Assembly (NCBI RefSeq): GCF_055900595.2
Contig: NZ_CM148325.1
DNA: 64,000 nucleotides
Direction: 5' to 3' (one strand)
Positions 23,739 to 39,782 of this stretch are shown here, piece by piece (the first letter of the stretch is position 1; every line of letters begins with the position of its first letter). Under the pieces are notes generated by a model that saw only the letters and a list, made by a program, of their open reading frames with translations, had not been told where the DNA came from and did not search any database. A program made the translations under genes and the position numbers.

Positions 23739-26117
23739 ATGTCCAACAATGGCTCGTCACCGCTGGTGCTTTGGTATAACCAACTCGGCATGAATGATGT
23801 AGACAGGGTTGGGGGCAAAAATGCCTCCCTGGGTGAAATGATTACTAACCTTTCCGGAATGGGTGTTTCCGTTCCGAATGGTTTCGCCACAACCGCCGAC
23901 GCGTTTAACCAGTTTCTGGACCAAAGCGGCGTAAACCAGCGCATTTATGAACTGCTGGATAAAACGGATATTGACGATGTTACCCAGCTTGCGAAAGCGG
24001 GCGCGCAAATCCGCCAGTGGATTATCGACACTCCCTTCCAGCCTGAGCTGGAAAACGCCATCCGCGAAGCCTATGCGCAGCTTTCCGCCGATGACGAAAA
24101 CGCCTCTTTTGCGGTGCGTTCCTCCGCTACTGCAGAAGATATGCCGGACGCTTCCTTTGCCGGTCAGCAGGAAACTTTCCTCAACGTTCAGGGTTTTGAC
24201 GCCGTTCTCGTGGCAGTGAAACATGTATTTGCTTCTCTGTTTAACGATCGCGCCATCTCTTATCGTGTGCACCAGGGTTACGATCACCGTGGCGTGGCGC
24301 TCTCCGCCGGTGTTCAGCGGATGGTGCGCTCCGACCTCGCATCTTCTGGCGTGATGTTCTCCATTGATACCGAATCCGGCTTTGACCAGGTGGTGTTTAT
24401 CACTTCCGCATGGGGCCTTGGTGAAATGGTCGTGCAGGGTGCGGTTAACCCGGATGAGTTTTACGTGCACAAACCGACACTGGCGGCGAATCGCCCGGCT
24501 ATCGTGCGCCGCACCATGGGGTCAAAAAAAATCCGCATGGTTTACGCGCCGACCCAGGAGCACGGCAAGCAGGTTAAAATCGAAGACGTACCGCAGGAAC
24601 AGCGTGACATCTTCTCGCTGACCAACGAAGAAGTGCAGGAACTGGCAAAACAGGCCGTACAAATTGAGAAACACTACGGTCGCCCGATGGATATTGAGTG
24701 GGCGAAAGATGGCCACACCGGTAAATTGTTTATCGTGCAGGCGCGTCCAGAAACTGTGCGTTCTCGCGGTCAGGTCATGGAGCGTTATACGTTGCATTCA
24801 CAGGGTAAGATTATCGCCGAAGGCCGTGCTATCGGTCATCGCATCGGCGCGGGTCCGGTGAAAGTCATCCATGACATCAGCGAAATGAACCGCATCGAAC
24901 CTGGCGACGTGCTGGTTACTGACATGACCGACCCGGATTGGGAACCGATCATGAAGAAAGCATCGGCTATCGTCACTAACCGTGGCGGACGTACCTGTCA
25001 CGCGGCGATCATCGCTCGTGAACTGGGCATTCCAGCGGTAGTGGGCTGTGGTGATGCAACAGAACGGATGAAAGACGGTGAGAACGTCACTGTTTCTTGT
25101 GCAGAGGGTGATACCGGTTACGTCTATGCTGAGTTGCTGGAATTTAGCGTGAAAAGCTCCAGCGTGGAAACGATGCCGGATCTGCCGTTGAAAGTGATGA
25201 TGAACGTCGGTAACCCGGACCGTGCTTTCGATTTCGCCTGCCTGCCGAACGAAGGCGTGGGCCTTGCGCGTCTGGAATTTATCATCAACCGTATGATTGG
25301 CGTCCACCCACGCGCACTGCTTGAGTTTGACGATCAGGAACCGCAGTTGCAAAACGAAATCCGCGAGATGATGAAAGGTTTTGATTCTCCGCGTGAGTTT
25401 TACGTTGGTCGTCTGACTGAAGGGATCGCGACGTTGGGTGCTGCGTTTTATCCGAAGCGTGTCATTGTCCGTCTCTCTGATTTTAAATCGAACGAATACG
25501 CCAACCTGGTCGGTGGTGAACGTTACGAGCCAGATGAAGAGAACCCAATGCTCGGCTTCCGTGGCGCGGGACGTTATGTTTCCGACAGCTTCCGCGACTG
25601 CTTCGCACTGGAGTGTGAAGCGGTGAAACGTGTGCGCAACGACATGGGACTGACCAACGTTGAGATCATGATCCCGTTCGTGCGTACCGTAGATCAGGCG
25701 AAAGCGGTGGTTGAAGAACTGGCGCGCCAGGGGCTGAAACGTGGTGAAAACGGGCTGAAGATCATCATGATGTGTGAAATTCCGTCCAACGCCTTACTGG
25801 CAGAGCAGTTCCTCGAATATTTCGACGGCTTCTCAATTGGCTCAAACGATATGACGCAGCTTGCGCTTGGTCTGGACCGAGACTCTGGCGTGGTGTCTGA
25901 ACTGTTCGATGAGCGCAACGATGCAGTGAAAGCACTGCTGTCGATGGCGATTCGTGCCGCGAAGAAGCAGGGCAAATATGTCGGGATTTGCGGTCAGGGT
26001 CCGTCCGACCATGAAGACTTTGCCGCCTGGCTGATGGAAGAGGGGATCGATAGCTTGTCCCTGAATCCGGACACTGTGGTACAAACCTGGTTAAGCCTGG
26101 CTGAACTGAAGAAATAA
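23739..26117 (+). CDS. ppsA: Phosphoenolpyruvate synthase
   Basis: 792 aa ORF, recognised PpsA sequence. Confidence 0.97.
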
Positions 26118-26124
26118 AATAAAT

Positions 26125-26151
26125 CCCCGGCGGCGTTTTGTCGCCGGGTTT
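26125..26151. terminator. Hairpin between convergent ppsA and fadK
   Basis: CCCGGCG-GCGTTTTGT-CGCCGGG followed by TTT; U-run weak. Confidence 0.4.
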
Positions 26152-26173
26152 ACGTGATCCCCGAGTATGAAAC

Positions 26174-27820
26174 TTATTCAACCTCTTTGCAGATATCCTG
26201 AGTTAATCGCCGCATAATATCTTTCCTTAACAAAAACTTTTGTATTTTACCTGATGCAGTACGCGGTAATTTCTCTGTTACCACAATATGTTCAGGATAT
26301 TTATATTTTGCTACCCGTTTACGGCTAAAAAAAGCCACTATGTCTTCCAGCGATATTGAATGATGTGGCGCTTTAAGCACGACATAAGCGCATGAACGTT
26401 CACCTAAGCGTTCATCGGGCATTGCCACAACACAAGCATCATGAATTTTAGGATGCTGTAATAAAATATCTTCCACTTCACGACTGCTAATATTTTCCCC
26501 GCCGCGGACAATAATATCTTTCTTGCGCCCGGTTATTTTTATATAGCCAGCTTCATCCATTCGGCAGAGATCGCCGCTGTAATACCAGCCTTCTTCATCC
26601 AGCGCACGGGCGGTTAATTCAGGTTCATCAAAATAACCCATAAACACATTGGGACCACGCGAAGCCTCTTCACCTACACAACCAGGCGGTAAGGTCTTGC
26701 GTGCATCATCGACCACTTTAATCTCTACGCCTGCGGCAGCGTAACCATCGGTGTTCATAAAGCGCGACAAAGGATCGTCGAGATTTACCACCGCATGCGG
26801 CGAACTTTCTGTGGAACCATAAACACTTAATAATTTAATGCCGCGTTGTTGGCATTCACGCGCCACCTTTTTGGGGATCGTGGTGCCGCCGCAAAGAAAG
26901 AAGCGCAGCGCTGAAAGGTCTGCGGGCTGTTTCTCCAGTAAATTCAAAAGGTCATAGACAAACGGTGTTGCGCCGAGCATACAGGTGCAACGCTGCTGCT
27001 CAAGCAGCGCGAGACACGCATCAGGAGTGAAAATATCTAACAACACGCTGCGAGCACCAATCAAAAAAGGTGCTGTTACGCCATGCAGAAAGCCCGTTGC
27101 GTGACCAAGTGGCGCAGGCATCATAAAGACATCCTGCCAGGTCAGATTCAGCCGCGCGCAATAAGCCCGCTCACTGGCGAGAATATTGTTATGCGTTAGC
27201 ATCACGCCCTTTGGCAGACCCTCGGTTCCGGAGGTAAATAGCACAGCGGCTAATTCATCGCCGTGGGTCGTTATCGCCGTAGTCAGTGGGGTATTGTCGG
27301 CGAGAATCTGACTTAATGAGAGGGAAGAGGTGGCGGGAGCCAGTTTGTCCACGCCGACAATTTGTTGTAGTTGTGGAAGCTGATTTTGCAGCGGCAGGAT
27401 TAAATCTACCGGACGCGTTTGTTTAAACAACGTCGGTGCAAAGAACATTTTTGCCTGACACTTATTGAGTACCCACACCAGTTCTGCTTCCCGCCAGGAA
27501 GGTAACAGCGGCACGGAAACCGCACCGGTTTTCAGGCAGGCAAGATAGATAACGGTAAATTCACACCAGCCTGGCAGTTGAAATGCGATGCGATCGCCTG
27601 ATTCAATACCCTTCGCCAGCATCCAGTTTGCCAGACAGCTCGCGGCATGATCGAGCGCGCTATAGGTGTACGATGCACCATGATTATCGACCACGGCAAT
27701 TTTATCTGGCATCGAACGAGCGGTCTGCTGCCAGTAATCGGCCAGCGAAGCATCGCCCCATAATCCTTGCTGACGATACGCCGCACGACGTTGTTCGTTG
27801 AACGTTAATGTCACTTTCAT
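26174..27820 (-). CDS. fadK: Short-chain acyl-CoA synthetase (548 aa)
   Basis: ATG at 27818-27820 (minus) gives MKVTLTFNEQRRAAYRQQ; AMP-binding motifs TSGTEGLPKG. Confidence 0.9.
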   Translation of the reverse strand: MKVTLTFNEQRRAAYRQQGLWGDASLADYWQQTARSMPDKIAVVDNHGASYTYSALDHAASCLANWMLAKGIESGDRIAFQLPGWCEFTVIYLACLKTGAVSVPLLPSWREAELVWVLNKCQAKMFFAPTLFKQTRPVDLILPLQNQLPQLQQIVGVDKLAPATSSLSLSQILADNTPLTTAITTHGDELAAVLFTSGTEGLPKGVMLTHNNILASERAYCARLNLTWQDVFMMPAPLGHATGFLHGVTAPFLIGARSVLLDIFTPDACLALLEQQRCTCMLGATPFVYDLLNLLEKQPADLSALRFFLCGGTTIPKKVARECQQRGIKLLSVYGSTESSPHAVVNLDDPLSRFMNTDGYAAAGVEIKVVDDARKTLPPGCVGEEASRGPNVFMGYFDEPELTARALDEEGWYYSGDLCRMDEAGYIKITGRKKDIIVRGGENISSREVEDILLQHPKIHDACVVAMPDERLGERSCAYVVLKAPHHSISLEDIVAFFSRKRVAKYKYPEHIVVTEKLPRTASGKIQKFLLRKDIMRRLTQDICKEVE

Positions 27821-27876
27821 TTTGGACTCTCGAAACAGAACATCAGGCCCGAGATGCGGGCCTGTGGGATGCATGA

Positions 27877-28170
27877 TTAGCCGTAGCGAAAATCAATACC
27901 GAAGGTGCCTGCGGGATATTGCCACTGTTCGAGAATAGTGTTGCCGCACAGCACCCGACAGGTGCCGCACTCCAGACAACCGGCGGAATCGAAATGAATG
28001 TTTCCAGCGTCATCCTGCTTATAAAGTCCGGCAGGGCAAGCTTTCATTAATTTACGGAATTCATTGATATCGGGATTTGCCGCCAAAATGATATGCGGGT
28101 GGCCCTCATCAACATGGAATTTATTGACGCCTAATTTGATGTCGACGTTAACCGTAGCGTTCTGGCTCAT
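27877..28170 (-). CDS. ydiT: Ferredoxin-like protein (FixX homologue)
   Basis: 97 aa ORF with Cys cluster CLECGTCRVLC. Confidence 0.88.
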   Translation of the reverse strand: MSQNATVNVDIKLGVNKFHVDEGHPHIILAANPDINEFRKLMKACPAGLYKQDDAGNIHFDSAGCLECGTCRVLCGNTILEQWQYPAGTFGIDFRYG

Positions 28171-29456
28171 AGCGCGGTTGCTCCTTTAATGCCATCTTTC
28201 AGCAAGTTGATCAGCCCAATTTTCTTCGCGTGTCCCATGATCATTTTGCGTACCGGCTGGTTTGGTTTGCCGTCGATGGTGAACATATCGTTCATGATGT
28301 CGGCGACCATTCGTGGGTATTGGCTAAACAGGCGCGGGTTTTCCATCAGCGCCGGGATCTTGCGGAAATGCTGCATATCGCGCATAACACAACTTTGTTC
28401 CAGCTCACGTTTGTATTGCGCCAGGCTGCTGGCGGAGAAGTCAGCGCGTTCTTTAGCGGCAATCACTGTTGTGGCGGCAGCCTGGGCCGATGCGATGGCT
28501 AAATCCATTCCGCGAACCGTAAAGCCCAGATTGAGGCAGAAACCTGCGGCATCACCGACGATCATCACGCCCTCATTAACCAGCTGCGGCACCATCGCCA
28601 GACCGCCTTCCGGCACCATGTGCGCGGAATATTCAAGCAGTTTGCCGCCGCTAATCAGCGGGCGAATGGCGGGGTGTTGTTTAAAATCTTCCAACATTTG
28701 CGGCACACTTTTTTGCGCATGAGCGATATCACCCAATCCACAAACCAGCCCCAACGATACGGAATCCTTGTTGGTATAGAGGAATCCGCCGCCCATCAAG
28801 CCGTCAGAAGGGGAACCGGCAAACAGCCAGGCGGCACCTTCCTCGCCCGTAACATTAAAGCGATCGTTGATCTGTTCTGGTGTGAGGCCAATAACCTCTT
28901 TAACACCAACAGCGTAATGATGCGGATCGGAAGCGGGAACCATTCCCAGCGAGCGGCCAAGCATCGAGTTAACGCCATCAGCCAGAATCACCACATTCGC
29001 TTCAAGAACATCATCCCCGGCCTGAACGCCAGTGATCTTATTTCCTTCACGAACCAGCGCATCGACACGAACGCCCGGGATAAACTGCGCGCCAGCCTGT
29101 TCGGCTTGTTCCATCAACCACGGGTCCAGACGATTACGCAATACAGTATAAGACGCGTGTTGCGGAACATCTGGTTGCTCGCGGTGAAAATCGAGGGTAA
29201 CGGCACTCTCTTCGGTTAAGAAGGAGATTTTCTCGCGTGTGACCTTGCGTTCTACCGGCGCTGATGCTGCAAAGCCTGGAATAATCGCTTCAAGTGTGTG
29301 GGCATAAAGACGCCCGCCGGTCATGTTTTTACATCCGGCACTGTCGCCGCGTTCTATCACCAGGACATCCAGCCCGGCTCGCGCCATGACCAGTGCGGCA
29401 ACGCTACCGGCAACGCCCGCACCGACCACAATGGCATCAAATTTGTCATCCGACAT
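28167..29456 (-). CDS. ydiS: ETF:quinone oxidoreductase-like flavoprotein (FixC homologue)
   Basis: 429 aa ORF with N-terminal FAD fold AIVVGAGVAGSVAA. Confidence 0.9.
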   Translation of the reverse strand: MSDDKFDAIVVGAGVAGSVAALVMARAGLDVLVIERGDSAGCKNMTGGRLYAHTLEAIIPGFAASAPVERKVTREKISFLTEESAVTLDFHREQPDVPQHASYTVLRNRLDPWLMEQAEQAGAQFIPGVRVDALVREGNKITGVQAGDDVLEANVVILADGVNSMLGRSLGMVPASDPHHYAVGVKEVIGLTPEQINDRFNVTGEEGAAWLFAGSPSDGLMGGGFLYTNKDSVSLGLVCGLGDIAHAQKSVPQMLEDFKQHPAIRPLISGGKLLEYSAHMVPEGGLAMVPQLVNEGVMIVGDAAGFCLNLGFTVRGMDLAIASAQAAATTVIAAKERADFSASSLAQYKRELEQSCVMRDMQHFRKIPALMENPRLFSQYPRMVADIMNDMFTIDGKPNQPVRKMIMGHAKKIGLINLLKDGIKGATAL

Positions 29457-29511
29457 GCGTTATGCTCCCTTCCCGCTGCATTTACAGCGGGAGATGTGGT
29501 TGAAAGGGGAA

Positions 29512-30450
29512 TTAGCGGCTCAACTGGCTAATCAGGGCAGGGACGACTTTGTAAATATCGCCCACCAGACCGTAGTCGGCATAGTTGAAGATTGGCGCAT
29601 TTTTATCTTTATTGATGGCGACAATCACTTTTGCGCCGTTGCCGCCAACCATATGCTGGATCTGCCCGGAGATCCCCAGCGTCAGGTAGAGATCGGATTT
29701 CAGCAACACGCCGGAGACACCGATATAACGTTCACGCTCCATCCAGTTCTCGCCTTCGGCAATTGGACGTGAACAGCCGACTTCAGCATTCAGCACCGCC
29801 GCCAGTTCGTGGACCATTTTCAGGTCATCCTGCGCCGCCAGACCACGACCGACGCCAACCACACGTTTTGCTTTGCTCAGGTCCACGCTGCTTGCCGCTT
29901 TCGCACGGCGTTCGCGACAGAGAATTTCATGACGCGGGGCAACATAAGGTACCGTTTCTGTCGGGCACTGATGAGAGATATCACTGGTGCACGGTTCCTG
30001 AACACCGGGTGCAAGGGTAATAATCGCCAGCGGGCTGTTGATCTTTTCCTGAGCAAACGCTAACCCGCCATACATCCGGTGTTCGGCGCAAATGTGACCA
30101 TCGACAATATCCACCGCCGTGGCATCGTTCACCAGCGCCGCATTCAGTTGCACACTTAACCGTGCTGCCAGAGCTTTACCACGTTTCGTCGCGGCCAACA
30201 GCAACATAGCGGGGTGTTTATCTTTCAGCAGGGCAGCAATGCTTTCGGCGTAATTTTCAGTACGTTGCAGCGCGTCGTTTTGCTCAAGAACATAAATACA
30301 TTTTGGCCCATAAGGCATAACTGCCTGCGCCTGGTCGGTATTTTGTACAATGGCATACACCTGTTGGCCCCATTGCTGAGCGCCGCCAAACAGTTCAGCA
30401 TAACGTTCAGGATTATCGCTAAAGACCCAGACGCTGTTTAATTGACTCAT
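29512..30450 (-). CDS. ydiR: Electron transfer flavoprotein alpha subunit (FixB homologue)
   Basis: 312 aa ORF, ETF-alpha-like. Confidence 0.9.
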   Translation of the reverse strand: MSQLNSVWVFSDNPERYAELFGGAQQWGQQVYAIVQNTDQAQAVMPYGPKCIYVLEQNDALQRTENYAESIAALLKDKHPAMLLLAATKRGKALAARLSVQLNAALVNDATAVDIVDGHICAEHRMYGGLAFAQEKINSPLAIITLAPGVQEPCTSDISHQCPTETVPYVAPRHEILCRERRAKAASSVDLSKAKRVVGVGRGLAAQDDLKMVHELAAVLNAEVGCSRPIAEGENWMERERYIGVSGVLLKSDLYLTLGISGQIQHMVGGNGAKVIVAINKDKNAPIFNYADYGLVGDIYKVVPALISQLSR

Positions 30451-30469
30451 CGTTTCTTCTCCGTAGGCT

Positions 30470-31234
30470 TCAGTTCAGGGCTTTCTTCAGATGTTCCGCC
30501 AGCTCGGCAATGGCCTCCGGCGAATCGTTATCGAGAATGATGTGCTTACGTTCTGTTTGCGGCGGTACGCGAATGCCGGTCAGTTCAGCAAGTGGTGTGC
30601 TCTGGCTCCAGCCAATATCACTTGCCTGCCACTGATTTACCGGTTTTTTACCCGCGCCGAGAATGGCTTTCATCGAAGGAATGCGTGGCATGTTAATATC
30701 GGAGGTGACGCAGAGCACGGCTGGAACAGAGAGCTCAATAACTTCAACATCATCTTCAAGCGTGCGTTCAATCACCAGTGTATTGCCCTGACGCTGAATA
30801 GCACTCACTGCATTAATCACCGGAAGTTGCAGAATTTCTCCGACCAGCAAGCCAACCTGCTGGGCATAAAGGTCGCCGGAACCTTCACCAAAGATCAGTA
30901 AATCGAAGCCGATCTTTTCAACTGCTGCCGCCAGCGCCTTTGCGGTATCGAGAGGCAGTGCATGTTCAAGTTGCGCATCCTGCACCAAATACAGGCTATG
31001 CGGCCCGCGGGATAGCACGTCTTTGCGCACTTTCGAGTTCTGCAACAATGAGCCGCCAATGGTCAGCGCGGCTATCTCATCGTCATCTGTTGCAATCTGG
31101 CTTGCAGCTTCAATGGCATTGAGATCGAACTGGCTGATTTTGGCGTCGGCATTGTCGAAATTCAGGGTATATTCTGGAGTGACAACAATGTCCTGTTCTT
31201 CAGGCACCAGCTTAAAGCAGGTTATTATTTTCAT
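30470..31234 (-). CDS. ydiQ: Electron transfer flavoprotein beta subunit (FixA homologue, 254 aa)
   Basis: ATG at 31232-31234 (minus) gives MKIITCFKLVPEEQDIVV. Confidence 0.9.
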   Translation of the reverse strand: MKIITCFKLVPEEQDIVVTPEYTLNFDNADAKISQFDLNAIEAASQIATDDDEIAALTIGGSLLQNSKVRKDVLSRGPHSLYLVQDAQLEHALPLDTAKALAAAVEKIGFDLLIFGEGSGDLYAQQVGLLVGEILQLPVINAVSAIQRQGNTLVIERTLEDDVEVIELSVPAVLCVTSDINMPRIPSMKAILGAGKKPVNQWQASDIGWSQSTPLAELTGIRVPPQTERKHIILDNDSPEAIAELAEHLKKALN

Positions 31235-31549
31235 GATTTCTCCTGTGAGTCGCATACGGAACCATCTCCGATGGAAGGTAAAAATGGCCTGAAAATAGTG
31301 TGCGATAGCGGTGCGGGGTTTTCGACGGAGCAAGCTGTTTTCCTTGCCAACAATCTTGCAAAAAAAATGCGATCGCTAAAACAAAAGTGCAATTTGCGGC
31401 AAAGTTGTTATTCCATGACCGTACAATCTTGCATTCAGTGTAAATAATCTTGTTTAGCTCTCGCTAAACGCGGTTGTATAACCGCAATACACGCCGTATT
31501 TTATCCGGCATATATTGTTTTTGCTTGCTCATGGAATAGGGAGGTTGTC

Positions 31550-32461
31550 ATGTATCAACGCTGTTTTGATAACGCCAGCGAAACGCTGTTTGTCGCCGGT
31601 AAAACGCCACGGCTTTCACGTTTTGCATTTAGCGATGATCCAAAATGGGAGTCCGGACATCACGTTCATGACAATGAAACCGAGCTGATTTACGTCAAGA
31701 AAGGGGTAGCAAGGTTTACCATCGATTCTTCGTTATATGTCGCGCATGCCGATGACATTGTGGTGATAGAACGTGGCAGGTTGCATGCGGTGGCCTCTGA
31801 CGTTAACGATCCAGCAACGACGTGTACCTGTGCGCTGTACGGCTTTCAGTTTCAGGGGACTGAGGAAAATCAGCTACTGCAACCGCATTCTTGCCCGGTC
31901 ATTGCCGCAGGGCAGGGAAAAGAAATCATTAAAGCCTTATTTAATGAGCTAAGTGTGATTTTGCCGCAAAGTAAAAATAGCCAAACATCTTCGTTATGGG
32001 ACGCATTTGCCTATACGTTAGCAATTCTTTACTACGAAAACTTTAAAAATGCTTATCGTTCGGAGCAGGGATATATTAAAAAAGATGTTCTGATAAAAGA
32101 TATTCTTTTCTATCTGAATAATAATTATCGCGAAAAAATCACTTTAGAGCAGTTATCGAAAAAATTTCGTGCCAGCGTCAGTTATATTTGCCATGAATTT
32201 ACCAAAGAGTATCGTATTTCCCCTATTAACTATGTTATTCAACGGCGTATGACGGAAGCGAAATGGTCACTCACCAATACTGAATTATCACAGGCAGAGA
32301 TCTCCTGGCGTGTGGGTTATGAAAATGTCGATCACTTTGCCAAACTGTTTTTGCGCCATGTCGGCTGTTCGCCCAGCGATTACCGCAGGCAATTTAAAAA
32401 CTGTTTTGCGGAACAAGAAATCTTATCTGAATTTCCTCAACCGGTAAGTCTTGCCGGATAA
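31550..32461 (+). CDS. ydiP: AraC-family transcriptional regulator
   Basis: 303 aa ORF with C-terminal AraC-type HTH region; divergent from ydiQ. Confidence 0.88.
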   Translation: MYQRCFDNASETLFVAGKTPRLSRFAFSDDPKWESGHHVHDNETELIYVKKGVARFTIDSSLYVAHADDIVVIERGRLHAVASDVNDPATTCTCALYGFQFQGTEENQLLQPHSCPVIAAGQGKEIIKALFNELSVILPQSKNSQTSSLWDAFAYTLAILYYENFKNAYRSEQGYIKKDVLIKDILFYLNNNYREKITLEQLSKKFRASVSYICHEFTKEYRISPINYVIQRRMTEAKWSLTNTELSQAEISWRVGYENVDHFAKLFLRHVGCSPSDYRRQFKNCFAEQEILSEFPQPVSLAG

Positions 32462-32503
32462 ATCTGGCGGCGCAGTTTGTTAAGAAGCTGCGCCGCCTGC
32501 AGA

Positions 32504-33655
32504 TTATTTGTTCTGATAATCTTTCAGGATCTGCCGACCCGCTACGTAAATCATAATTTCGTCTGTACCGCCGCCGATACGTTCACAACGGACATCACGC
32601 CAGAAGCGAGAGACGCGCGCCTCATCGGTATAGCCCAGACCGCCCATGATTTGAATCGCATCATCAATAACTTCCATTGCGGTACGTGCGCAGTACAGTT
32701 TTGCCAGCGCCGCGCTGGTGCGCAGTGACTGATGCTGATCGGCTTGCCATGCCACTTTCAACACCATGTTGCGCATGTTGTCGATCTTAATCGCCATCAG
32801 CGCCAGTTTTTCCTGGATCATCTGGTTATGACCAATGGGTTTACCAAAAGCGATACGTTGGTTGGCATAGCGGGCGGCATCTTCGAATGCGCATTCGGCA
32901 AAGCCGGTGCTGCGCGCGGCGTTGATCAGGCGCTCCATCTCAAAGTTGTACATCACATTGAGGAAACCCATTCCTTCTTCGCCCACCATGTCGCTCTCTT
33001 CAACCTCTACGTTGTCGAGATAGACTTCGCAGGTGCTGAGCATATGCCAGCCGATTTTATGCAGCGGGTTAATCTTAATGCCGGGCTTACTGGAGTCGAC
33101 CCACCACAGGGTGAAGGCTTTTTTGGGATCTTTCGGTTCTGGATCGCGCGCCAGCACCAGCATATATGGGTACTCTTTCGCGCCGGTAATAAAGGTTTTC
33201 TGGCCGTTGATGTAAACCTTGCCATTTTTACGCGTGTAAGTGGTAGTGGCACTGTTATTGTCTGAGCCTGCGCCTGGTTCCGTCAACGCCAGGGCATAGG
33301 CGGGATCACCCGTTTCCAGGGTGCTCTCTGCCGTTTTACGTAGCTGCTCAGCAGAACCGAAACGGCGCATGCTGTGAATACATTGACCGTTGGTAATCAA
33401 AAATGCCGGAGCACCGCATTTTGACACTTCCATCAGCGCCAACATCTGGGTGACGTAATCCGCAGGGATGCCACCAAATTCTTCCGGCACGCCAAGCATA
33501 GAAATGCCGTTATCCGCCAGTGCCTGCATAAACTCACGCGGGTATGTCCCGTTTTGATCGCAGGTGCGGAAATACTCTTCCGGGAAGTTGGTCGTAATCA
33601 ATTCGCGAATACTGGCCAGCAGCAGTTCTTGTTCTTCAGTTAAAGAAAAATCCAT
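32504..33655 (-). CDS. ydiO: Acyl-CoA dehydrogenase family protein (383 aa)
   Basis: ATG at 33653-33655 (minus) gives MDFSLTEEQELLLASIREL; ACAD family. Confidence 0.9.
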   Translation of the reverse strand: MDFSLTEEQELLLASIRELITTNFPEEYFRTCDQNGTYPREFMQALADNGISMLGVPEEFGGIPADYVTQMLALMEVSKCGAPAFLITNGQCIHSMRRFGSAEQLRKTAESTLETGDPAYALALTEPGAGSDNNSATTTYTRKNGKVYINGQKTFITGAKEYPYMLVLARDPEPKDPKKAFTLWWVDSSKPGIKINPLHKIGWHMLSTCEVYLDNVEVEESDMVGEEGMGFLNVMYNFEMERLINAARSTGFAECAFEDAARYANQRIAFGKPIGHNQMIQEKLALMAIKIDNMRNMVLKVAWQADQHQSLRTSAALAKLYCARTAMEVIDDAIQIMGGLGYTDEARVSRFWRDVRCERIGGGTDEIMIYVAGRQILKDYQNK

Positions 33656-33668
33656 CATTATACTCCTG

Positions 33669-35264
33669 TTAATGAGCCGCTTCAGGCAGGACAAAACCCA
33701 TCGCCGCATCGATAAATAATCTTTCGTCCATCAGTTTGAGTTCTGGCGAAATCACTGGGGTGAAATCCATTTTGTCGAGAATATCTTTTTGTAAATCGAC
33801 GCCAGGAGCGATTTCGATTAAATGCAGGCCGTCTTCTTTTAGCGTGAATACGGCGCGCTCAGTGATATAACGAACATCCAGTCCTCGCTCGAGAGCGATT
33901 TTTCCGCTGAAAGTAATTTCCGGTAGTTCCCGAATAAATTTCTTCACCCGTCCTTCCTGGACGATATTTAATTTTCCGTCGGTAATTTCTGTTTTTAAAC
34001 TGCCCGCAGTTAATGTGCTGCAGAAAACGATTTTCTTCGAAGTGGCACTGATATCAATAAATCCACCGGTGCCCATGATTTTACCATTGAATTTATGCAC
34101 GCCGACGTTACCGTGCTGGTCGACTTCAGCAAAACTCAAATAACAAACATCCAGACCACCACCGTGATAAAAATCAAACTGGGACGTCATATCCAGAATG
34201 GCACGGGTATTCACGTTCGCGCCAAAGGCGATCCCCTGTGAAGTAATACCGCCAATTGGGCCTGTTTCTACCGTCAGAATAAAGTCATCAGCACAACCTT
34301 CTTCCCGGGCGACCAGGCCAATGCCGTCGGCAATACCGACGCCGACATTCCCCACCGCGCCTTTGCGCATTTCGAATAATGCGCGCCGCGCAACTAATTT
34401 ACGTTGGTTTAGGGGTAGGCTAAGTTTGGTGCTGTCATCAAGGGTGAAGTCACCAGAAATAAAGCGGTTAACCGGCGCACCGCCATACAGTTGGGTTTGA
34501 TCCGGATCGACTACCACAATATCCACCAGATAACCCGGAATACGGACAGATTTAGGATGCAGCGTGGCTTTCTTAACCATCTTCTGCACCTGCATCATCA
34601 CAATACCGCCGTTATTGTGCACCGCCTGAGCAATAACCAATGCGTCGAGATACATCACCTCATCTTCAAAAGTGGCGTAGCCTTCACTGTCGCAGGTGGT
34701 AGCGCGAATGAAGGCGATATCTGGCGCTATCGCTTTGTAATAGAGATATTCTTTGTTATCAAACTCGACCAGTTTAATCAGGTCTTCTTTAGTGACTTCA
34801 TTCAGTTTGCCGCCTTGCTGGCGTGGATCGACAAATGTTCCGATGCCAATATCACTAATAATACCAGGCTGGTGGGCTGCGGCGGCGCGTAAGGTTTGTG
34901 TAAGTACACCTTGTGGATAGTTATAAGCAATAATTTTATTTTGTTCTGCGAGATCAGAAATACGCGGCGATTGTCCCCAGTGACCGCATAATGCCCATTT
35001 CACCAGACCTTCTTGCGCCAGCGGACTAATACCACGGTCGGCGCGATCGCCAAGCCCTGTTGGACTAATAATCGATAAATTACGTGGTGTTTGAGTCTGT
35101 TTATATTTATCAGCAAGAGCAGTAATTAACGTGGTGGCTTCCAGAATACCGCCGCCAGCGCCTAACACACAAAGTGTTGCTTCGTCGGGAATATAATTCA
35201 CCGCTTCCTGTGCCGACAGGACCGGCACTCGTCCATTAATACGAGGTGGTTTTACAGGTTTCAT
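33669..35264 (-). CDS. ydiF: Acyl-CoA:acetate CoA-transferase (fused alpha/beta)
   Basis: 531 aa ORF, recognised YdiF sequence. Confidence 0.9.
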   Translation of the reverse strand: MKPVKPPRINGRVPVLSAQEAVNYIPDEATLCVLGAGGGILEATTLITALADKYKQTQTPRNLSIISPTGLGDRADRGISPLAQEGLVKWALCGHWGQSPRISDLAEQNKIIAYNYPQGVLTQTLRAAAAHQPGIISDIGIGTFVDPRQQGGKLNEVTKEDLIKLVEFDNKEYLYYKAIAPDIAFIRATTCDSEGYATFEDEVMYLDALVIAQAVHNNGGIVMMQVQKMVKKATLHPKSVRIPGYLVDIVVVDPDQTQLYGGAPVNRFISGDFTLDDSTKLSLPLNQRKLVARRALFEMRKGAVGNVGVGIADGIGLVAREEGCADDFILTVETGPIGGITSQGIAFGANVNTRAILDMTSQFDFYHGGGLDVCYLSFAEVDQHGNVGVHKFNGKIMGTGGFIDISATSKKIVFCSTLTAGSLKTEITDGKLNIVQEGRVKKFIRELPEITFSGKIALERGLDVRYITERAVFTLKEDGLHLIEIAPGVDLQKDILDKMDFTPVISPELKLMDERLFIDAAMGFVLPEAAH

Positions 35265-35408
35265 TGTTAATTCCTGATTCAGGTGTGATTTTCCCTACGC
35301 CAGATGGAGAATTAGAGCGCAGAGACTCACGAAATATTTTTATTAAATACGGTTGAATATATTTTTTTAGTTCGGCGGGGGAGGGTATTCCCGCCGAAAT
35401 ATTATTGC

Positions 35409-36167
35409 TTATGCCTGATGTAAAATAGTTAATACCGTGCGCAAATCATTTACCGAGATTTGCCCTGGCGCAGAGGCTTTTTTTACCGCACCAAAAGTTG
35501 CCGCCGAGCCAAATACTTCACCAGCCAGACGAGAAATTACGCCAGTTTTTGCCATTGACATCGTGATGATTGGACGATCGGCATACTGCTCCTGCATCTC
35601 CAGGGTCGCAGCAAGCAACGTCAGCACATCGCTGGTACTTTGCGGCATCAGCGCAATCTTAGGAATATCGGCATCGAAGGACTGCATTTTGCGCAGACGG
35701 GCAATGATTTCTTCGGCTTCCGGCGTTTTATGGAAGTCGTGGTTGGACATGACAACTTTCACATCATGCGCGTGGGCGTAGGCGACGGTTTCTTTAACCT
35801 GATCATCGCCGGTAAATAACTCCAGATCGATCATATCAACCAGGCCACTATCGATGGCTGCACGATTGAGTGCAATATAAGCCTCGGTGGAAATCGCCTG
35901 CTCGCCGCCTTCTTTGGCACTGCGGAAGGTAAACAGCAGTGGTTTTTCTGGCATGGTTTCACGGAGAATTTTTGCTGCCGCCATGACAGACTCCACATTG
36001 GAGAGGTCGGCATAGTGGTCCACACGCCATTCCAGAATATCAAAGTCCGCTTCACGATAGGCGAGAGCTTCGGATTTCACGCTGGCGATATCTTTCGCCA
36101 TCAGCGAGACGATGATTTTAGGTGCGCCCGTACCAATGACGAGATCTTTTACAGTTACGGTTTTCAT
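35409..36167 (-). CDS. aroD: 3-dehydroquinate dehydratase type I
   Basis: 252 aa ORF, recognised AroD sequence. Confidence 0.95.
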
Positions 36168-36197: not shown

Positions 36198-37064
36198 TCA
36201 GGCACCGAACCCCATGACCTGTTTAACATATTCCAGAGGGAAATCTTTGCCAGTCCATAACGTGAACTGTTCAGCCCCTTGCCACAACAACATGCCGTAT
36301 CCATCAATCGTTTTGCAACCAGCTTGTTGCGCCTGCTGCAATAACTTCGTCATATGCGGGTTATACACGCATTCAGTGACCAGAAGTCCCGGATGTAACA
36401 GACTGATATCATTAACCAATGATTCATTCTCAAGGGGTTTCATACCCACTTTTGTGCCATTGGTTAAAATGTCGGCGGAAGCCAGGGCTTCAGCAAAGGC
36501 TTGCTGATCGGCGAGATCGGTAACCGTGACGACACAATCGGTGTTTTCGTTAACCCGCTGCGCGAAGGCGAGGGCTTTATCGAAGAACTCATCCCGACGG
36601 TTAAAGAGTTTAATTTCTTTTAAACCTTCAATTGCCCCCTGCGCGCCAATCGCCGTTGAGGCACCTCCGGCCCCTAACAGCACCATTGTTTTGCCTTTGA
36701 TATCAAAACCGCTCTCTTTAATGGCGCGAATATGGCCCGTGCCGTCGGTGTTATAGCCACGCAGATAGCCATCATCATTAACGATGGTGTTGATGGCACC
36801 CACAAGTTTGGCCGCTGGTGTTAATTCATCAACATATTCACACGCCAGTTGTTTGTTCGGCATTGATACACCAGTTCCGCGCATTTTGAGGGCTTTTAAT
36901 CCTTCAATTGCTCCGGGAAAACTATCGTTATCCACTTCAAAGGCCATATAGGTAAATGGCAATCCCGCTTTTTCTAAGGCTTTATTCTGCATTTCAGGCG
37001 ATAAACTGTGGCGGATAGGATAGGCCATCAACCCAATCAATTCGTATTTTGCGGTAACATCCAT
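36198..37064 (-). CDS. ydiB: Quinate/shikimate 5-dehydrogenase
   Basis: 288 aa ORF, shikimate dehydrogenase family. Confidence 0.93.
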
Positions 37065-37075
37065 AATTAACTCCT

Positions 37076-38341
37076 TTAACCTCTATGCTTAATTGTGTTT
37101 AACCGGGTGCTAAATTTACGCTCGCCAAACCGCACATCATTCTCAGGAATAATAAAAACGCGGTAATAGCGGATAAAAACAATAATTGCGGTAATCAGGG
37201 CCAGCAGCGCGAAAGTAAAATCGAGAACGATGATATATTGCAGGCCGATGTTCGACAGATAACCGGTAATCAGCGGAATAACAAAATTAGCCAATCCACC
37301 CATCATCATATAAATACTGGTGACTTTGGCTTTGCTTTTGGGGAAAAACTCTGACATGACCGAAACGCCGAGCTGTAAAATGCCGCCAGCTGCTGAGAAA
37401 CCGATAACAAAGGCTCCGGCATTACACACCAGTGGAGAAGGGTACAGGTAGATAATGGCTGATGTTATTGTTGCCAGTGCAGAGTTAAATACATTAGCCC
37501 ATATGGGCCGGACCATTTTTTTCAGTAGTGCGGCAAAAATAAAGACACAGACCAACGAGCCCATACTGTAATAAGAGATGGTTTTTAATGCCTCAGCTTC
37601 TGACATACCAGCAAAAGCCATCGCATATTTGGGCATCCACACCACAATCACATAAAAGGTCGAGAATGCAGCTACACCGAACAGTACCGATGAAACACCT
37701 TCCAGCCAGACTAACGGTTTGCTGTTCATTTGCGGTAATTCATTAGCTACGCTGGCGTCCACCAACTGGTTGGGGAATTTGCTTTTCAATAGCATCAGCG
37801 TGATCAGTACAAACAGAATACCCGGAATAATCAGCCCATAGCCGTACCAGATGTTATTGAGCAACATATAGCTCACCAGCATTGGGTAGAACATTTGTCC
37901 GAATGACACCATCGCTTTAACCAGTATGACCGCCGAACCAGAGGCTTTCGGAAAGCATTCCATGAGCGCAGGGTAGCCACCCGTATCCAGCGCTGAGTTA
38001 GCGATACCTACGCACACTGCCAGACAGTAGGCGAGAGTTAAATTCGGGCAAGCGGGAATACCAAAGAAGAATAGCAGATACATTATTACTGCCATTAATA
38101 TCACCGCCCGACGACCAAACTTATCGGAGATCACACCGAAGAATAAAATACTGATCAATCGCCCCAAACCGATACCGGAAATTAAATAGGCAATGCCCGC
38201 GTTGTCAGTGGAAAACTTTTCTGCCAGAGATGACATATTTTGGGCAAGCGTTATAACACTAATGCCGTGCAGGAAATAGCTAAAGTAAATACAAAGAACA
38301 GCCAGGATAAATGGCGTGCTGAAAGCCTTATTTTGAGACAT
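37076..38341 (-). CDS. ydiN: MFS transporter YdiN
   Basis: ATG at 38339-38341 (minus) gives [16 protein letters not shown]; polytopic. Confidence 0.88.
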
Positions 38342-38567
38342 TTTCACAGCTCCTTGCTGAAAGATAATTTCGTTACCGTACGTATTGTTCTCCGACGGTT
38401 TACATAATTACTATACTGAAGATGATTTTCCCTGGGTACATGGCATAAAGTTTATGTTTCCAGGAATATTGCATGTCATAGTTTGTTTTTTATCGCGATT
38501 TTCCTTAGTTGGCGCAGAAAGAGTTATTTATCCGTAAGATCTTGCATGACCTGAAAAGAATATTGCA

Positions 38568-39782
38568 TTACCCACCCGGAGCGACATTTTCCTTTAGCGA
38601 GTGATGCCACGTTTCTTTGCGGCTGCGTAAGCTGATAAACAGTGCCAGTAAAAAGCCGATGGCAGCGATGGCGGTATCGAACCACATAATATCGGCAATA
38701 CTTCTTTGGGATAGATGAGCCGTAATCAACGGAATAGTAAAGGTCGCAATACTGCCCGCACTGTAATAGATCCCTGTAGCTTTACCTTTAGCGTAGGGGA
38801 AACGTTCAGCCATTAATGTCAGGCCAATTTGCACAACACCTCCAGCAGAGGTAAAACCAATGACAAAAGCAAATATTATCACCACATAAAATGTGGGATG
38901 CAGACAGACGGTAAACAGAGCAATAAATGAGATAAAGGTGTACAGCATGAGTAATGTTGTTGGGCGAACGGTATTACGAATGAGTGGAGCGGTAATAAAT
39001 ACACAAAGCAGCGAACCCACGGTGTAGATACTGAGTAGTTTGATCGACATAGTGTATGACATGCCTGCAACAAATTGTCCGTACTGTGCCAGCCACTGGC
39101 TAACCAGATAAAAGGTTGCCATTGAGATATAGCCATATAAGGTATAACTGGCTAAATCGATAATTGAACAGCGATGTTCCGTAGAGTTGGTGGCTTTCTC
39201 TATGACAGGTAAGCGACGACCCGGATGGGGTGGGAACGTACAACGGTATAAAAACAGAGCATTAATAAACATAATGCCTGCGGCAATCATAAAGGACCAG
39301 CCGAACCACAGTTCAGCCCACACTAACAGGCTGATGATTAGCGGTAATAAAAATTGCCCGCTGGAAACAAATGCTTTAATTAAAATATTAGCTGTACCCG
39401 GTGAACGTGGAAAAGCTTCCATCAAACTGGGATAGGTGCCTGCATCGAGAAAACTGTTTGCCATTCCCGCCAGAAAGCCCAAACCATAAGCGATAATGAT
39501 GTTATTGGTGTGCAGGATGCCAAAAAAGAAGGCCATATAGCAGCACATCCCGAGCATGATAAAAGGGCGGCGACCAAAGCGATCGGATAATAATCCTGCA
39601 AAAAGCAAGACACTTAATCGACCAATACCCAGCGATGAGATAACTATTGAGACGCCTGCGGCATTAGTCTGCCAAAGCGTCTCCAGCGAGGCCATATTCA
39701 GGCTCATCAAAATGACGCCCATACCATGCACCAGGTAATTAAAATACAACCCAAGTGCGGTAGGGAAATAGGGATTTTTCAT
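38568..39782 (-). CDS. ydiM: MFS transporter YdiM
   Basis: 404 aa polytopic ORF, paralogue-like to ydiN. Confidence 0.88.
   Translation of the reverse strand: MKNPYFPTALGLYFNYLVHGMGVILMSLNMASLETLWQTNAAGVSIVISSLGIGRLSVLLFAGLLSDRFGRRPFIMLGMCCYMAFFFGILHTNNIIIAYGLGFLAGMANSFLDAGTYPSLMEAFPRSPGTANILIKAFVSSGQFLLPLIISLLVWAELWFGWSFMIAAGIMFINALFLYRCTFPPHPGRRLPVIEKATNSTEHRCSIIDLASYTLYGYISMATFYLVSQWLAQYGQFVAGMSYTMSIKLLSIYTVGSLLCVFITAPLIRNTVRPTTLLMLYTFISFIALFTVCLHPTFYVVIIFAFVIGFTSAGGVVQIGLTLMAERFPYAKGKATGIYYSAGSIATFTIPLITAHLSQRSIADIMWFDTAIAAIGFLLALFISLRSRKETWHHSLKENVAPGG

Follow-up and report, generated by a model that had tools for sequence, protein, structure and literature searches.

We analyzed the ydi locus of Escherichia coli that occupies positions 26174–35264 (9091 bases) of a 64-kb stretch of DNA (the window, by which we mean the whole of that stretch, from contig NZ_CM148325.1); the evidence throughout is computational or taken second-hand from the literature. 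Eight intact open reading frames (ORFs) fill the locus, exactly at the coordinates noted in a preliminary description of the window, and the mechanical ORFs of ydiQ and ydiO extend further upstream than the gene starts. Along the window these are fadK (also ydiD; 26174..27820, minus strand), encoding a 548-aa AMP-forming acyl-CoA ligase (Pfam AMP-binding, 1e-87) whose start in K-12 is placed at 27874; ydiT (27877..28170, minus), a FixX-type ferredoxin-like protein with a Fer4 domain; ydiS (28167..29456, minus), an FixC-type flavoprotein of the electron transfer flavoprotein (ETF):quinone oxidoreductase family with DAO and ETFQO_UQ-bd domains; ydiR (29512..30450, minus), the large (alpha) ETF subunit (Pfam ETF_alpha, 4e-28); ydiQ (30470..31234, minus), the small (beta) ETF subunit (Pfam ETF); ydiP (31550..32461, plus), an AraC/XylS-family regulator (HTH_18, 1e-20; AraC_binding; Cupin_2); ydiO (32504..33655, minus), a CaiA-like FAD-containing acyl-CoA dehydrogenase (ACAD) or enoyl-CoA reductase with three Acyl-CoA_dh domains; and ydiF (33669..35264, minus), a fused alpha/beta family I CoA-transferase (CoA_trans, 2e-49). 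ydiP is divergent from ydiQ, across an intergenic region that was correctly delimited at 31235–31549, and convergent with ydiO. All domains named earlier were confirmed by Pfam (E-values down to 1e-87), RefSeq and K-12 annotation give the same eight gene names, and the identities and coordinates first proposed for the genes agree with ORFs, domains and annotation alike. The proteins are 97–100% identical to those of K-12, the 9091 bases are 100% identical to the chromosome of E. coli Z0117EC0005, and at least 80% of the locus DNA is covered in 5346/5426 complete E. coli genomes. The locus is an intact, already annotated part of the E. coli chromosome and, as first described, a textbook cluster that is not new and of little significance; what the comparisons below add is a proposed link to hydroaromatic compounds and a predicted common operator.

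The eight genes belong to a longer conserved arrangement. By annotation, the locus is flanked on one side by ppsA and on the other by aroD (type I 3-dehydroquinate dehydratase; 35409..36167, minus strand, outside the span first noted), ydiB (NAD(P)-dependent quinate/shikimate dehydrogenase; 36198..37064, minus; NCBIfam equivalog PRK12749, 670 bits), ydiN (major facilitator superfamily [MFS] transporter; 37076..38341, minus), ydiM, ydiL and rprA. A search with YdiP, one genome per species, yielded 40 loci, onto which the proteins of the window were mapped; ydiP orthologs (59–99% identical) hold the same position in these 40 loci. The collinear block fadK-ydiTSRQ / ydiP / ydiO-ydiF-aroD-ydiB-ydiN, followed by a ydiM-like MFS gene, is found in Escherichia, Citrobacter, Kosakonia, Serratia, Symbiopectobacterium, Brenneria, Dickeya, Prodigiosinella, Yersinia and an Enterobacterales metagenome-assembled genome. 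aroD is collinear in every Enterobacterales locus that extends that far, while the ppsA flank is kept in Escherichia and Citrobacter only. Klebsiella is reported to have no ydiN. Between E. coli and Yersinia, YdiO is 92–93% and YdiF 87–90% identical, with 68% for YdiR, 65% for YdiP, 70% for AroD and 71% for FadK; over loci L007–L043 the conservation of YdiO and YdiF (E. coli vs. Yersinia or Dickeya) is unusually high, the other genes of the block ranging from 65 to 79%. The module of the preliminary description is therefore a real eight-gene locus but was drawn too narrowly, as collinearity, rearranged clusters and a shared operator indicate a unit that runs past 35264 through aroD-ydiB-ydiN to about 38570. 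We infer a conserved unit, ydiN-ydiB-aroD-ydiF-ydiO / ydiP / ydiQRST-fadK, of which the eight genes make up one half.

Association with dehydroquinase and shikimate dehydrogenase genes extends to neighborhoods in which the order of the genes has changed. Among the non-collinear YdiF neighborhoods inspected, 7/9 contain a dehydroquinase or shikimate dehydrogenase gene; these rearranged clusters come from other assemblies, with 38–43% GC. In L050, the genes ydiN-ydiF-ydiO-ydiQ-ydiR-ydiB-aroD-ydiS-ydiT lie on one strand beside a divergent AraC gene; L049 has MFS-ydiF-ydiO-ydiQ-ydiR-aroD-ydiS-ydiT-fadK, and L051 has ydiB-aroD-ACAD-MFS-ACAD-ydiQ-ydiR-ydiS-ydiT-fadK-Dfx-ydiF-ydiO. L056 reads MFS-ydiF-ydiO, the ETF small and large subunit genes, then Shikimate_dh-DHquinase_I-ApbA-MaoC, and L052 has Shikimate_dh directly upstream of ydiF-ydiO. 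AroD homologs are thus embedded within the ETF/ACAD operons of L049, L050, L051 and L056, YdiB homologs 77% identical stand inside the rearranged operons of L050 and L051, and the rearranged operons of L050 and L049 both begin with a ydiN ortholog (69% and 46%, respectively). In L053 and L057 (Sedimentibacter), the gene for a YdiF homolog (63–65%) is followed, in slightly different order, by genes for MaoC (dehydratase), an ApbA-like reductase and a type II dehydroquinase, whose fold is unrelated to that of AroD and which represents a non-homologous replacement. A gene set that is kept through rearrangement, and in which one member is swapped for a non-homologous enzyme of the same function, carries a signature of functional coupling. 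In the two exceptions, L054 and L055, MaoC and reductase genes are accompanied by esterases or TRAP transporters. YdiO-like genes that accompany a family III CoA-transferase (Desulfovibrio L044, E. albertii L048) have no dehydroquinase or shikimate dehydrogenase neighbors, and a solitary YdiO homolog (P0027, 74% identical), which lacks ETF and YdiF neighbors, is uninformative.

The two halves of the unit also share a predicted operator. Located 94 nt upstream of the ydiP ATG, at 31420..31456 (plus strand; core 31426–31452), is a direct repeat, ATCTTGCA-N13-ATCTTG (period 21 bp), which is a candidate operator for YdiP. A promoter-proximal half-site, TGCAAGAT, at 31353..31360 (minus strand), 119 nt upstream of the ydiQ ATG and 73 bp from the tandem pair, is conserved from Escherichia to Yersinia. 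The exact 27-nt repeat pattern is present in most Enterobacterales loci, typically ~95 nt upstream of ydiP, and the same pattern adjoins the 45%-identical AraC gene of the rearranged L050. A 37-nt position weight matrix built from ydiP-proximal sites only gives the ydiP-proximal site 48.6 bits, compared with a maximum of 10.9 in shuffled windows (ten shuffles). The single other match of at least 10 bits in the window, at 38533–38569 (26.5 bits), lies ~190 nt upstream of ydiN, and across 1.13 Mb of loci every match that reaches 14 bits is either ydiP-proximal or upstream of ydiN; sites upstream of ydiN in the same orientation occur in Escherichia, Citrobacter, Serratia, Symbiopectobacterium, Brenneria, Yersinia, Prodigiosinella and others. 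This second operator copy (38466–38567, minus strand) comprises half-sites at 38560–38567, 38539–38546 and 38466–38473. On the sense strand of the leftward operons, the ydiQ and ydiN regions each have three TGCAA(G/T)AT-type half-sites, 21 and 73 bp apart, the last of which ends 119 nt (ydiQ) or 125 nt (ydiN) before the ATG. The domains of YdiP, together with a 21-bp direct repeat beside its gene, fit the pattern of AraC/XylS regulators, and by homology YdiP is a regulator of the AraC type. The sites suggest one regulon, presumably YdiP's, that includes ydiP, ydiQRST-fadK and the operon starting at ydiN. The preliminary description held that neither the substrate range nor the effector of YdiP is evident from sequence, which is fair for one sequence, but comparison of genomes supplies both a hydroaromatic-acid lead and a candidate operator.

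YdiO is 48% identical to CaiA over its full length and, like CaiA, has Gly at the base position of medium-chain acyl-CoA dehydrogenase (MCAD)-type enzymes (RIGGGT vs. IYEGT) and Glu at the helix-G position (FEMERL/FDHERF), where MCAD-type and short-chain (SCAD-type) enzymes have Gly. A Glu at the helix-G position is the arrangement of isovaleryl-CoA dehydrogenase (IVD). YdiO matches models for acryloyl-CoA reductase (AcrC) and cyclohexane-1-carbonyl-CoA dehydrogenase below their curated cut-offs, and YdiQR match the AcrAB models far below theirs. FadK, annotated as a medium-chain fatty-acid–CoA ligase and 29% identical to CaiC, has as its second-best family cyclohexanecarboxylate-CoA ligase (TIGR03208; 424 bits, far below the curated cut-off), just above the fatty-acid ligase subfamilies. 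The Rhodopseudomonas palustris AliA/AliB enzymes and the Clostridium propionicum acryloyl-CoA reductase with its ETF are accordingly among the best-scoring characterized families after the proteins' own models, which is a resemblance and not membership. YdiF is essentially identical to the solved YdiF structures 2ahu, 2ahv and 2ahw (E-value 0) and carries the hallmarks of family I CoA-transferases, the catalytic Glu333 and a GxGGF motif (GTGGF at 398). An AMP-forming ligase (FadK) and a CoA-transferase (YdiF), the latter of family I and not family III, are thus both encoded. By homology, FadK and YdiF are predicted to make and recycle a CoA thioester, YdiO to carry out the redox step between an alpha,beta C=C and C–C bond, and YdiQR (the ETF), YdiS and YdiT to connect YdiO to the membrane quinone pool.

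Because the conserved unit includes ydiN-ydiB-aroD and one type of operator stands before both ydiQ and ydiN, we propose that the ydi genes encode a quinone-linked redox system with a CoA loop like that of Cai/Fix, and that its native substrate is most likely a quinate- or shikimate-derived (hydroaromatic) carboxylic acid, and not only fatty acids. We give this reading a probability of roughly 0.45. In the proposed mechanism, which is modeled on the reduction of carnitine and of caffeate, YdiN would import quinate or shikimate, and YdiB and AroD would interconvert quinate, dehydroquinate, dehydroshikimate and shikimate. FadK would prime CoA onto the enoate, after which YdiF would cycle the CoA; YdiO would reduce the ring C1=C2 bond with electrons passing from menaquinol through YdiST to YdiQR, and YdiF would free the reduced acid (dihydroshikimate) while loading the next substrate molecule. 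AroD would take the part that CaiD has in the carnitine system, forming the enoate by dehydration, and YdiB would balance the ketone/alcohol step. The fatty acyl-CoA activity reported earlier would be a side or secondary activity, possibly a genuine one. The reductive direction is that of Cai/Fix; menaquinol as donor and the recycling of CoA by YdiF are further parts of the proposal. Textbook potentials are near −10 mV for enoyl-CoA/acyl-CoA and near −74 mV for menaquinone, so that menaquinol-driven reduction would be feasible without bifurcation.

One physiological extension of this proposal, which we offer tentatively and consider somewhat unlikely as a whole, is that E. coli and many other Enterobacterales use quinate or shikimate of plant and microbiota origin as an anaerobic electron sink, through a CoA-dependent pathway coupled to the quinone pool, with YdiB and AroD turning quinate into shikimate, YdiO-YdiQRST reducing shikimoyl-CoA to dihydroshikimoyl-CoA, a FadK/YdiF CoA loop, transport by YdiN, and YdiP sensing a hydroaromatic acid. 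Several published observations provide context for the hydroaromatic proposal. The enoate of shikimate serves gut bacteria as a respiratory acceptor, being reduced to hydroshikimate, and feces contain shikimate. In a shikimate-accumulating aroK aroL strain, the 50 genes with the largest differences between the early and the late stationary phase include ydiQ, ydiR, ydiS and ydiT; ydiB, aroD and ydiN are co-induced in another shikimate producer; transporters of the ydiM/ydiN type cluster with shikimate-pathway genes; and the locus is described as decaying in extraintestinal Salmonella.

Several points weigh against the hydroaromatic proposal. FadK and YdiF are reportedly active on short- and medium-chain substrates in vitro. 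To our knowledge, aroD is the sole biosynthetic dehydroquinase gene of E. coli, which could partly explain its position. The nine non-collinear YdiF neighborhoods are few and not phylogenetically independent, the direction of electron flow has the Cai/Fix analogy as its one source, and binding of YdiP to the operator is presumed from sequence. Between aroD and ydiF, just after the aroD stop, stands a GC-rich hairpin (35371..35398; 11-bp stem), which is followed on the transcribed minus strand by an A-run and not a U-run and is terminator-like only for the opposite strand; the same 144-bp spacer yielded no operator half-site and no clear promoter before ydiF. Our literature searches returned no paper or experiment linking ydiFO or ydiQRST to quinate, shikimate or hydroaromatics, and the study of the aroK aroL transcriptome has no non-producing control. 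Published work assigns fadK, ydiO and ydiQRST to anaerobic fatty-acid beta-oxidation, and a need for the system when cells grow on fatty acids anaerobically has been reported.

That assignment is the most serious competitor, though in our estimate still an unlikely one. It holds that the locus is dedicated to anaerobic fatty-acid beta-oxidation, with FadK activating short- and medium-chain acids, YdiO acting as an anaerobic counterpart of FadE, electrons passing via YdiQR, YdiST and quinone to nitrate or fumarate reductases, and the adjacency of aroD-ydiB-ydiN meaningless. This is the view of the literature, where it is credited to Campbell et al. 2003 and Gulevich et al. 2016: the cluster has been under discussion since 2003 and has been described as part of an anaerobic beta-oxidation pathway (ydiFO, ydiQRST, fadHIJK) with ydiP as presumed regulator. 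The transcription unit ydiQRST-fadK appears in a genomic SELEX (gSELEX) table. A set of ACAD, ETF and ETF:quinone oxidoreductase (ETF-QO) domains suits an oxidative chain, and the annotation of fadK noted above also speaks for the fatty-acid reading. However, in about 50 loci no genes for enoyl-CoA hydratase, 3-hydroxyacyl-CoA dehydrogenase or thiolase of the fadBA/fadIJ type stand next to ydiO or ydiF homologs, the constant neighbors of which are ydiB, aroD and MFS genes. Furthermore, ydiN is preceded by the same operator, and the closest characterized paralogous system, that of CaiA and FixABCX, reduces a substrate that is not a fatty acid. A search of the six intergenic regions of the locus for a FadR-like box (ANCTGGTCNGACNTNTT, at most 4 mismatches) was negative, which is a weak negative, and consensus scans of the same regions for FNR, CRP, FadR, ArcA and NarL gave no match at the mismatch levels used. 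ydiO is still listed with limited functional information in knowledge bases.

Much of the evidence for the hydroaromatic proposal would fit an oxidative counterpart, in which dihydroshikimate or related cyclohexane carboxylates produced by other members of the gut flora are imported, activated with CoA and oxidized by YdiO, with electrons passing to quinone, the resulting shikimate enters the synthesis of aromatic amino acids, and YdiB and AroD salvage quinate. The neighborhood and operator evidence is the same and the gene content fits almost as well; ACAD–ETF–ETF:QO chains are normally oxidative, FadK and YdiO resemble cyclohexanecarboxylate ligase and dehydrogenase families, and hydroshikimate is made by gut bacteria. 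We nevertheless regard such salvage as distinctly unlikely, since the closest paralogous system, Cai/Fix, is reductive, E. coli is not known to use such compounds, and the MaoC and ApbA-like genes of relatives are explained no better than by a reductive system.

Still less probable is that the native role of YdiO with YdiQRST lies in a reversed beta-oxidation cycle, where it would reduce crotonyl-CoA and longer enoyl-CoAs so that chains are elongated by fermentation. It has been given this enoyl-CoA reductase role in engineered strains and in metabolic-engineering models of reverse beta-oxidation; but according to a 2026 review, deletion or overexpression of YdiO changed butyrate minimally, another review calls the role of YdiQRST unclear, and the conserved neighbors and the shared operator would be left unexplained.

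The electron-transfer proteins bear on the remaining alternative. Identities to the E. coli paralogs are 56% (YdiQ–FixA), 45% (YdiR–FixB), 62% (YdiS–FixC) and 63% (YdiT–FixX). YdiS matches the FixC chain 7koe_C of T. maritima EtfABCX at 1.9e-70 and the mitochondrial ETF-QO 2gmh at 2e-24, and has the ETF-QO quinone-binding domain (Pfam ETFQO_UQ-bd). YdiT matches T. maritima EtfX (7koe_D) at 2e-14 but without three of its N-terminal Cys: its 5 Cys (one CP plus CxxCxxCxxxC) are enough for one [4Fe-4S] cluster, while T. maritima EtfX has 9 Cys in two motifs, and the YdiT orthologs inspected have 4–5 Cys each, with six in one Kosakonia. Pfam domains, the 45–63% identities and the 7koe matches together bear out the earlier description of a module for acyl-CoA/enoyl-CoA redox chemistry that depends on an ETF and has FixABCX-like partners. 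In the PDB, the best hit of YdiQ is CarD (6fah_B), and the top sequence matches of both YdiQ and YdiR belong to bifurcating complexes (CarD 6fah, 5ol2, LctBC 7qh2).

The motifs that distinguish ETF groups are nevertheless altered. In PMC8958531, which quotes group statistics originally from Garcia Costas et al. 2017, the small-subunit peptide DGDTAQ (its D and T at 100% each in 216 bifurcating ETFs; DDDSNQ in canonical ones) forms a "zipper" that binds the phosphates of the bifurcating flavin adenine dinucleotide (FAD), two Thr (T94/T97) hydrogen-bond its ribose, and a large-subunit Arg is conserved in 447/449 canonical ETFs and also in bifurcating ETFs. In HMMER alignments, DLYAQQ of YdiQ aligns on the DGDTAQ of CarD, LctB and C. 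difficile EtfB, and nearly all of 46 sequences of the YdiQ/FixA type carry D[LIV]YAQQ, with DLYSQQ in one. In YdiR, the C-terminal domain, which binds FAD, gives a good alignment with the large subunits of solved ETFs, and EHRMYGG aligned, vs. C. difficile EtfA, with the conserved ETF segment TRPAFGG/RPIYAGN. The conserved Arg (R. palustris R165/A. fermentans R146) is aligned with a His in YdiR, in FixB (KHMVYGG) and in all relatives; only YdiR has an Arg one residue after the His, where a one-residue register shift is possible. At the positions of T94/T97, in a segment assigned by residue numbering and T-x-x-T spacing, YdiQ has Pro and Thr (ALPLDTA vs. ADTWATS in CarD). Among the clade sequences collected, the deviant ETF motifs also occur in E. 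coli FixA and FixB. By these features YdiQRST looks like a one-flavin ETF plus quinone oxidoreductase with an altered second nucleotide site, and does not look like a canonical bifurcating FixABCX, an identity that the sequences do not support. Flavin-based bifurcation, one of the options named in the preliminary description, would have YdiQR oxidize NADH at a second, bifurcating FAD and send the electrons both to enoyl-CoA or quinone and to low-potential ferredoxin or flavodoxin, as in FixABCX, EtfABCX, Bcd-EtfAB or CarCDE. This is highly improbable despite the presence of all four FixABCX-type subunits and the top PDB matches, given D[LIV]YAQQ for DGDTAQ, His for the conserved Arg, an apparent Pro for one of the two FAD-holding Thr, Cys for one cluster and not two in YdiT, and the published view that group 2 ETFs alone are bifurcating. 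A historical review of bifurcation does not mention ydi or cai.

Comparison with characterized systems places the ydi unit closest to E. coli caiTABCDE/fixABCX, which converts carnitine to gamma-butyrobetaine anaerobically and encodes its direct paralogs. Both systems share the deviant ETF motifs and a single-cluster FixX, combine a ligase with a CoA-transferase, have a transporter nearby and consist of two divergent operons. Unlike cai, ydi has a family I transferase (YdiF) and not the family III CaiB, no CaiD-type hydratase, a regulator of AraC type and not CaiF, and quinate/shikimate genes as neighbors. The CarABCDE system of Acetobacterium woodii (caffeate respiration) follows the same logic of CoA-transferase loop, priming ligase, ACAD-type enoyl-CoA reductase and ETF, and CarC and CarE match as well as CarD, the best PDB match of YdiQ; however, CarCDE is soluble and bifurcating, with DGDTAQ and without FixCX, whereas YdiQR is without this motif and has a quinone oxidoreductase as its partner. 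The bifurcating FixABCX/EtfABCX complexes (A. vinelandii, R. palustris; T. maritima, 7KOE) have the same four subunit types but differ from ydi in their bifurcating-FAD signatures and in having two [4Fe-4S] sites where ydi has one, and the ydi genes go together with an ACAD and CoA-activating enzymes, not with nitrogenase. The canonical ACAD–ETF–ETF:ubiquinone oxidoreductase chain shares the same three protein families and the quinone link, but YdiQ lacks the AMP-site motif DDDSNQ, the putative catalytic Glu of YdiO is at the IVD-type helix-G position, and the locus has no FadR box and no fad genes nearby. Flavin reductases of Eggerthella lenta and Sutterella wadsworthensis carry out the same net reaction that we predict for ydi, shikimate to hydroshikimate as a gut electron sink; these are unrelated, respiratory-like enzymes that act on the free acid, without CoA thioester, ETF or ACAD.

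The hydroaromatic proposal provides a concrete hypothesis for a set of little-characterized y-genes, and may explain why E. coli has a second, NAD-linked quinate/shikimate dehydrogenase. If true, some eleven genes of which little is understood, ydiB among them, would gain a physiological role, and hydroshikimate would be reached by a route at the CoA level that differs from the flavin reductases of Eggerthella and Sutterella. Dietary enoates, whose use as electron acceptors in the gut was recognized recently, would then also be reduced by a mechanism that depends on CoA. The proposal would also correct a default "fatty-acid" annotation that has been propagated to thousands of genomes, and would caution metabolic engineers that YdiO with YdiQRST probably does not act as a bifurcating crotonyl-CoA reductase.

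Further features of the locus concern fadK and the promoter regions. The start of fadK differs between annotations: in K-12 it is at 27874 (566 aa; ATG 2 nt after the ydiT stop), while the Prokaryotic Genome Annotation Pipeline (PGAP) and the NCBIfam model place it at 27820 (548 aa), and the equivalog PRK06087 aligns with residues 1–547 of the 548-aa form. The 18-residue N-terminal extension is not conserved outside Escherichia (e.g., in Citrobacter, Serratia and Yersinia). Within 27821–27876 (minus strand), the disputed 54 nt contain a GC-rich hairpin between the ydiT stop and the 548-aa start, found in a scan for terminator-like structures (27844..27864, minus; 8-bp stem, 7 GC pairs). Generic scans for sigma-70 promoters and terminators over 26000–35600 gave no more sites than shuffled sequence, and attempts to assign promoter hexamers or sigma-54 spacing for ydiQ within the conserved block upstream of it produced no convincing candidate. 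Antisense within fadK, at 27508–27524 (plus strand), lies the intragenic sigma-54 site IA15 known from K-12 fadK (GCGGCACGGAAACTGCA; PMC4591121), which here reads GCGGCACGGAAACCGCA, with one change from K-12 in the region of the −12 element.

In Enterobacter sp. EA-1 (L042, 4631–15506), the block is present in fragments, with fadK at 54% and ydiO at 70% identity over part of its length and no match to ydiS, ydiT or ydiF, and the YdiP-type operator is intact at 9872–9908; this suggests that the locus has decayed there. In Brenneria, Dickeya and Prodigiosinella (L026, L027, L030), the spacer between ydiP and ydiQ is 760–911 bp long and has a conserved Shine–Dalgarno-like GGAG followed by ATG (AACCGGAGAAAA.CATG), and may contain an extra small gene.

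E. albertii-type L048 (4504–12872) and Desulfovibrio desulfuricans L044 (5134–17537) contain more modules of the Cai/Fix kind. In these, ETF genes are combined with a YdiO-like ACAD (63–68% identical) and a second ACAD, a CoA-transferase of family III and an MFS transporter; FixCX, a metallo-beta-lactamase-fold gene and a ligase are added in the Desulfovibrio module, and that of E. albertii is located between ung and a SpoU methylase gene. Genes for a MaoC-type dehydratase and an ApbA/PanE-like reductase recur beside YdiF homologs outside the Enterobacterales (L053, L054, L056, L057). In Hominifimenecus (L054), this YdiF/MaoC/ApbA trio follows four carboxylesterase genes, whose products could act on quinate esters such as chlorogenate. 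Finally, a 651-aa product on a 4-kb ENA contig (P0175) combines Shikimate_dh_N with CoA_trans, shares 83% identity with YdiF, and is either a real ydiB-ydiF fusion or an artefact of gene calling.

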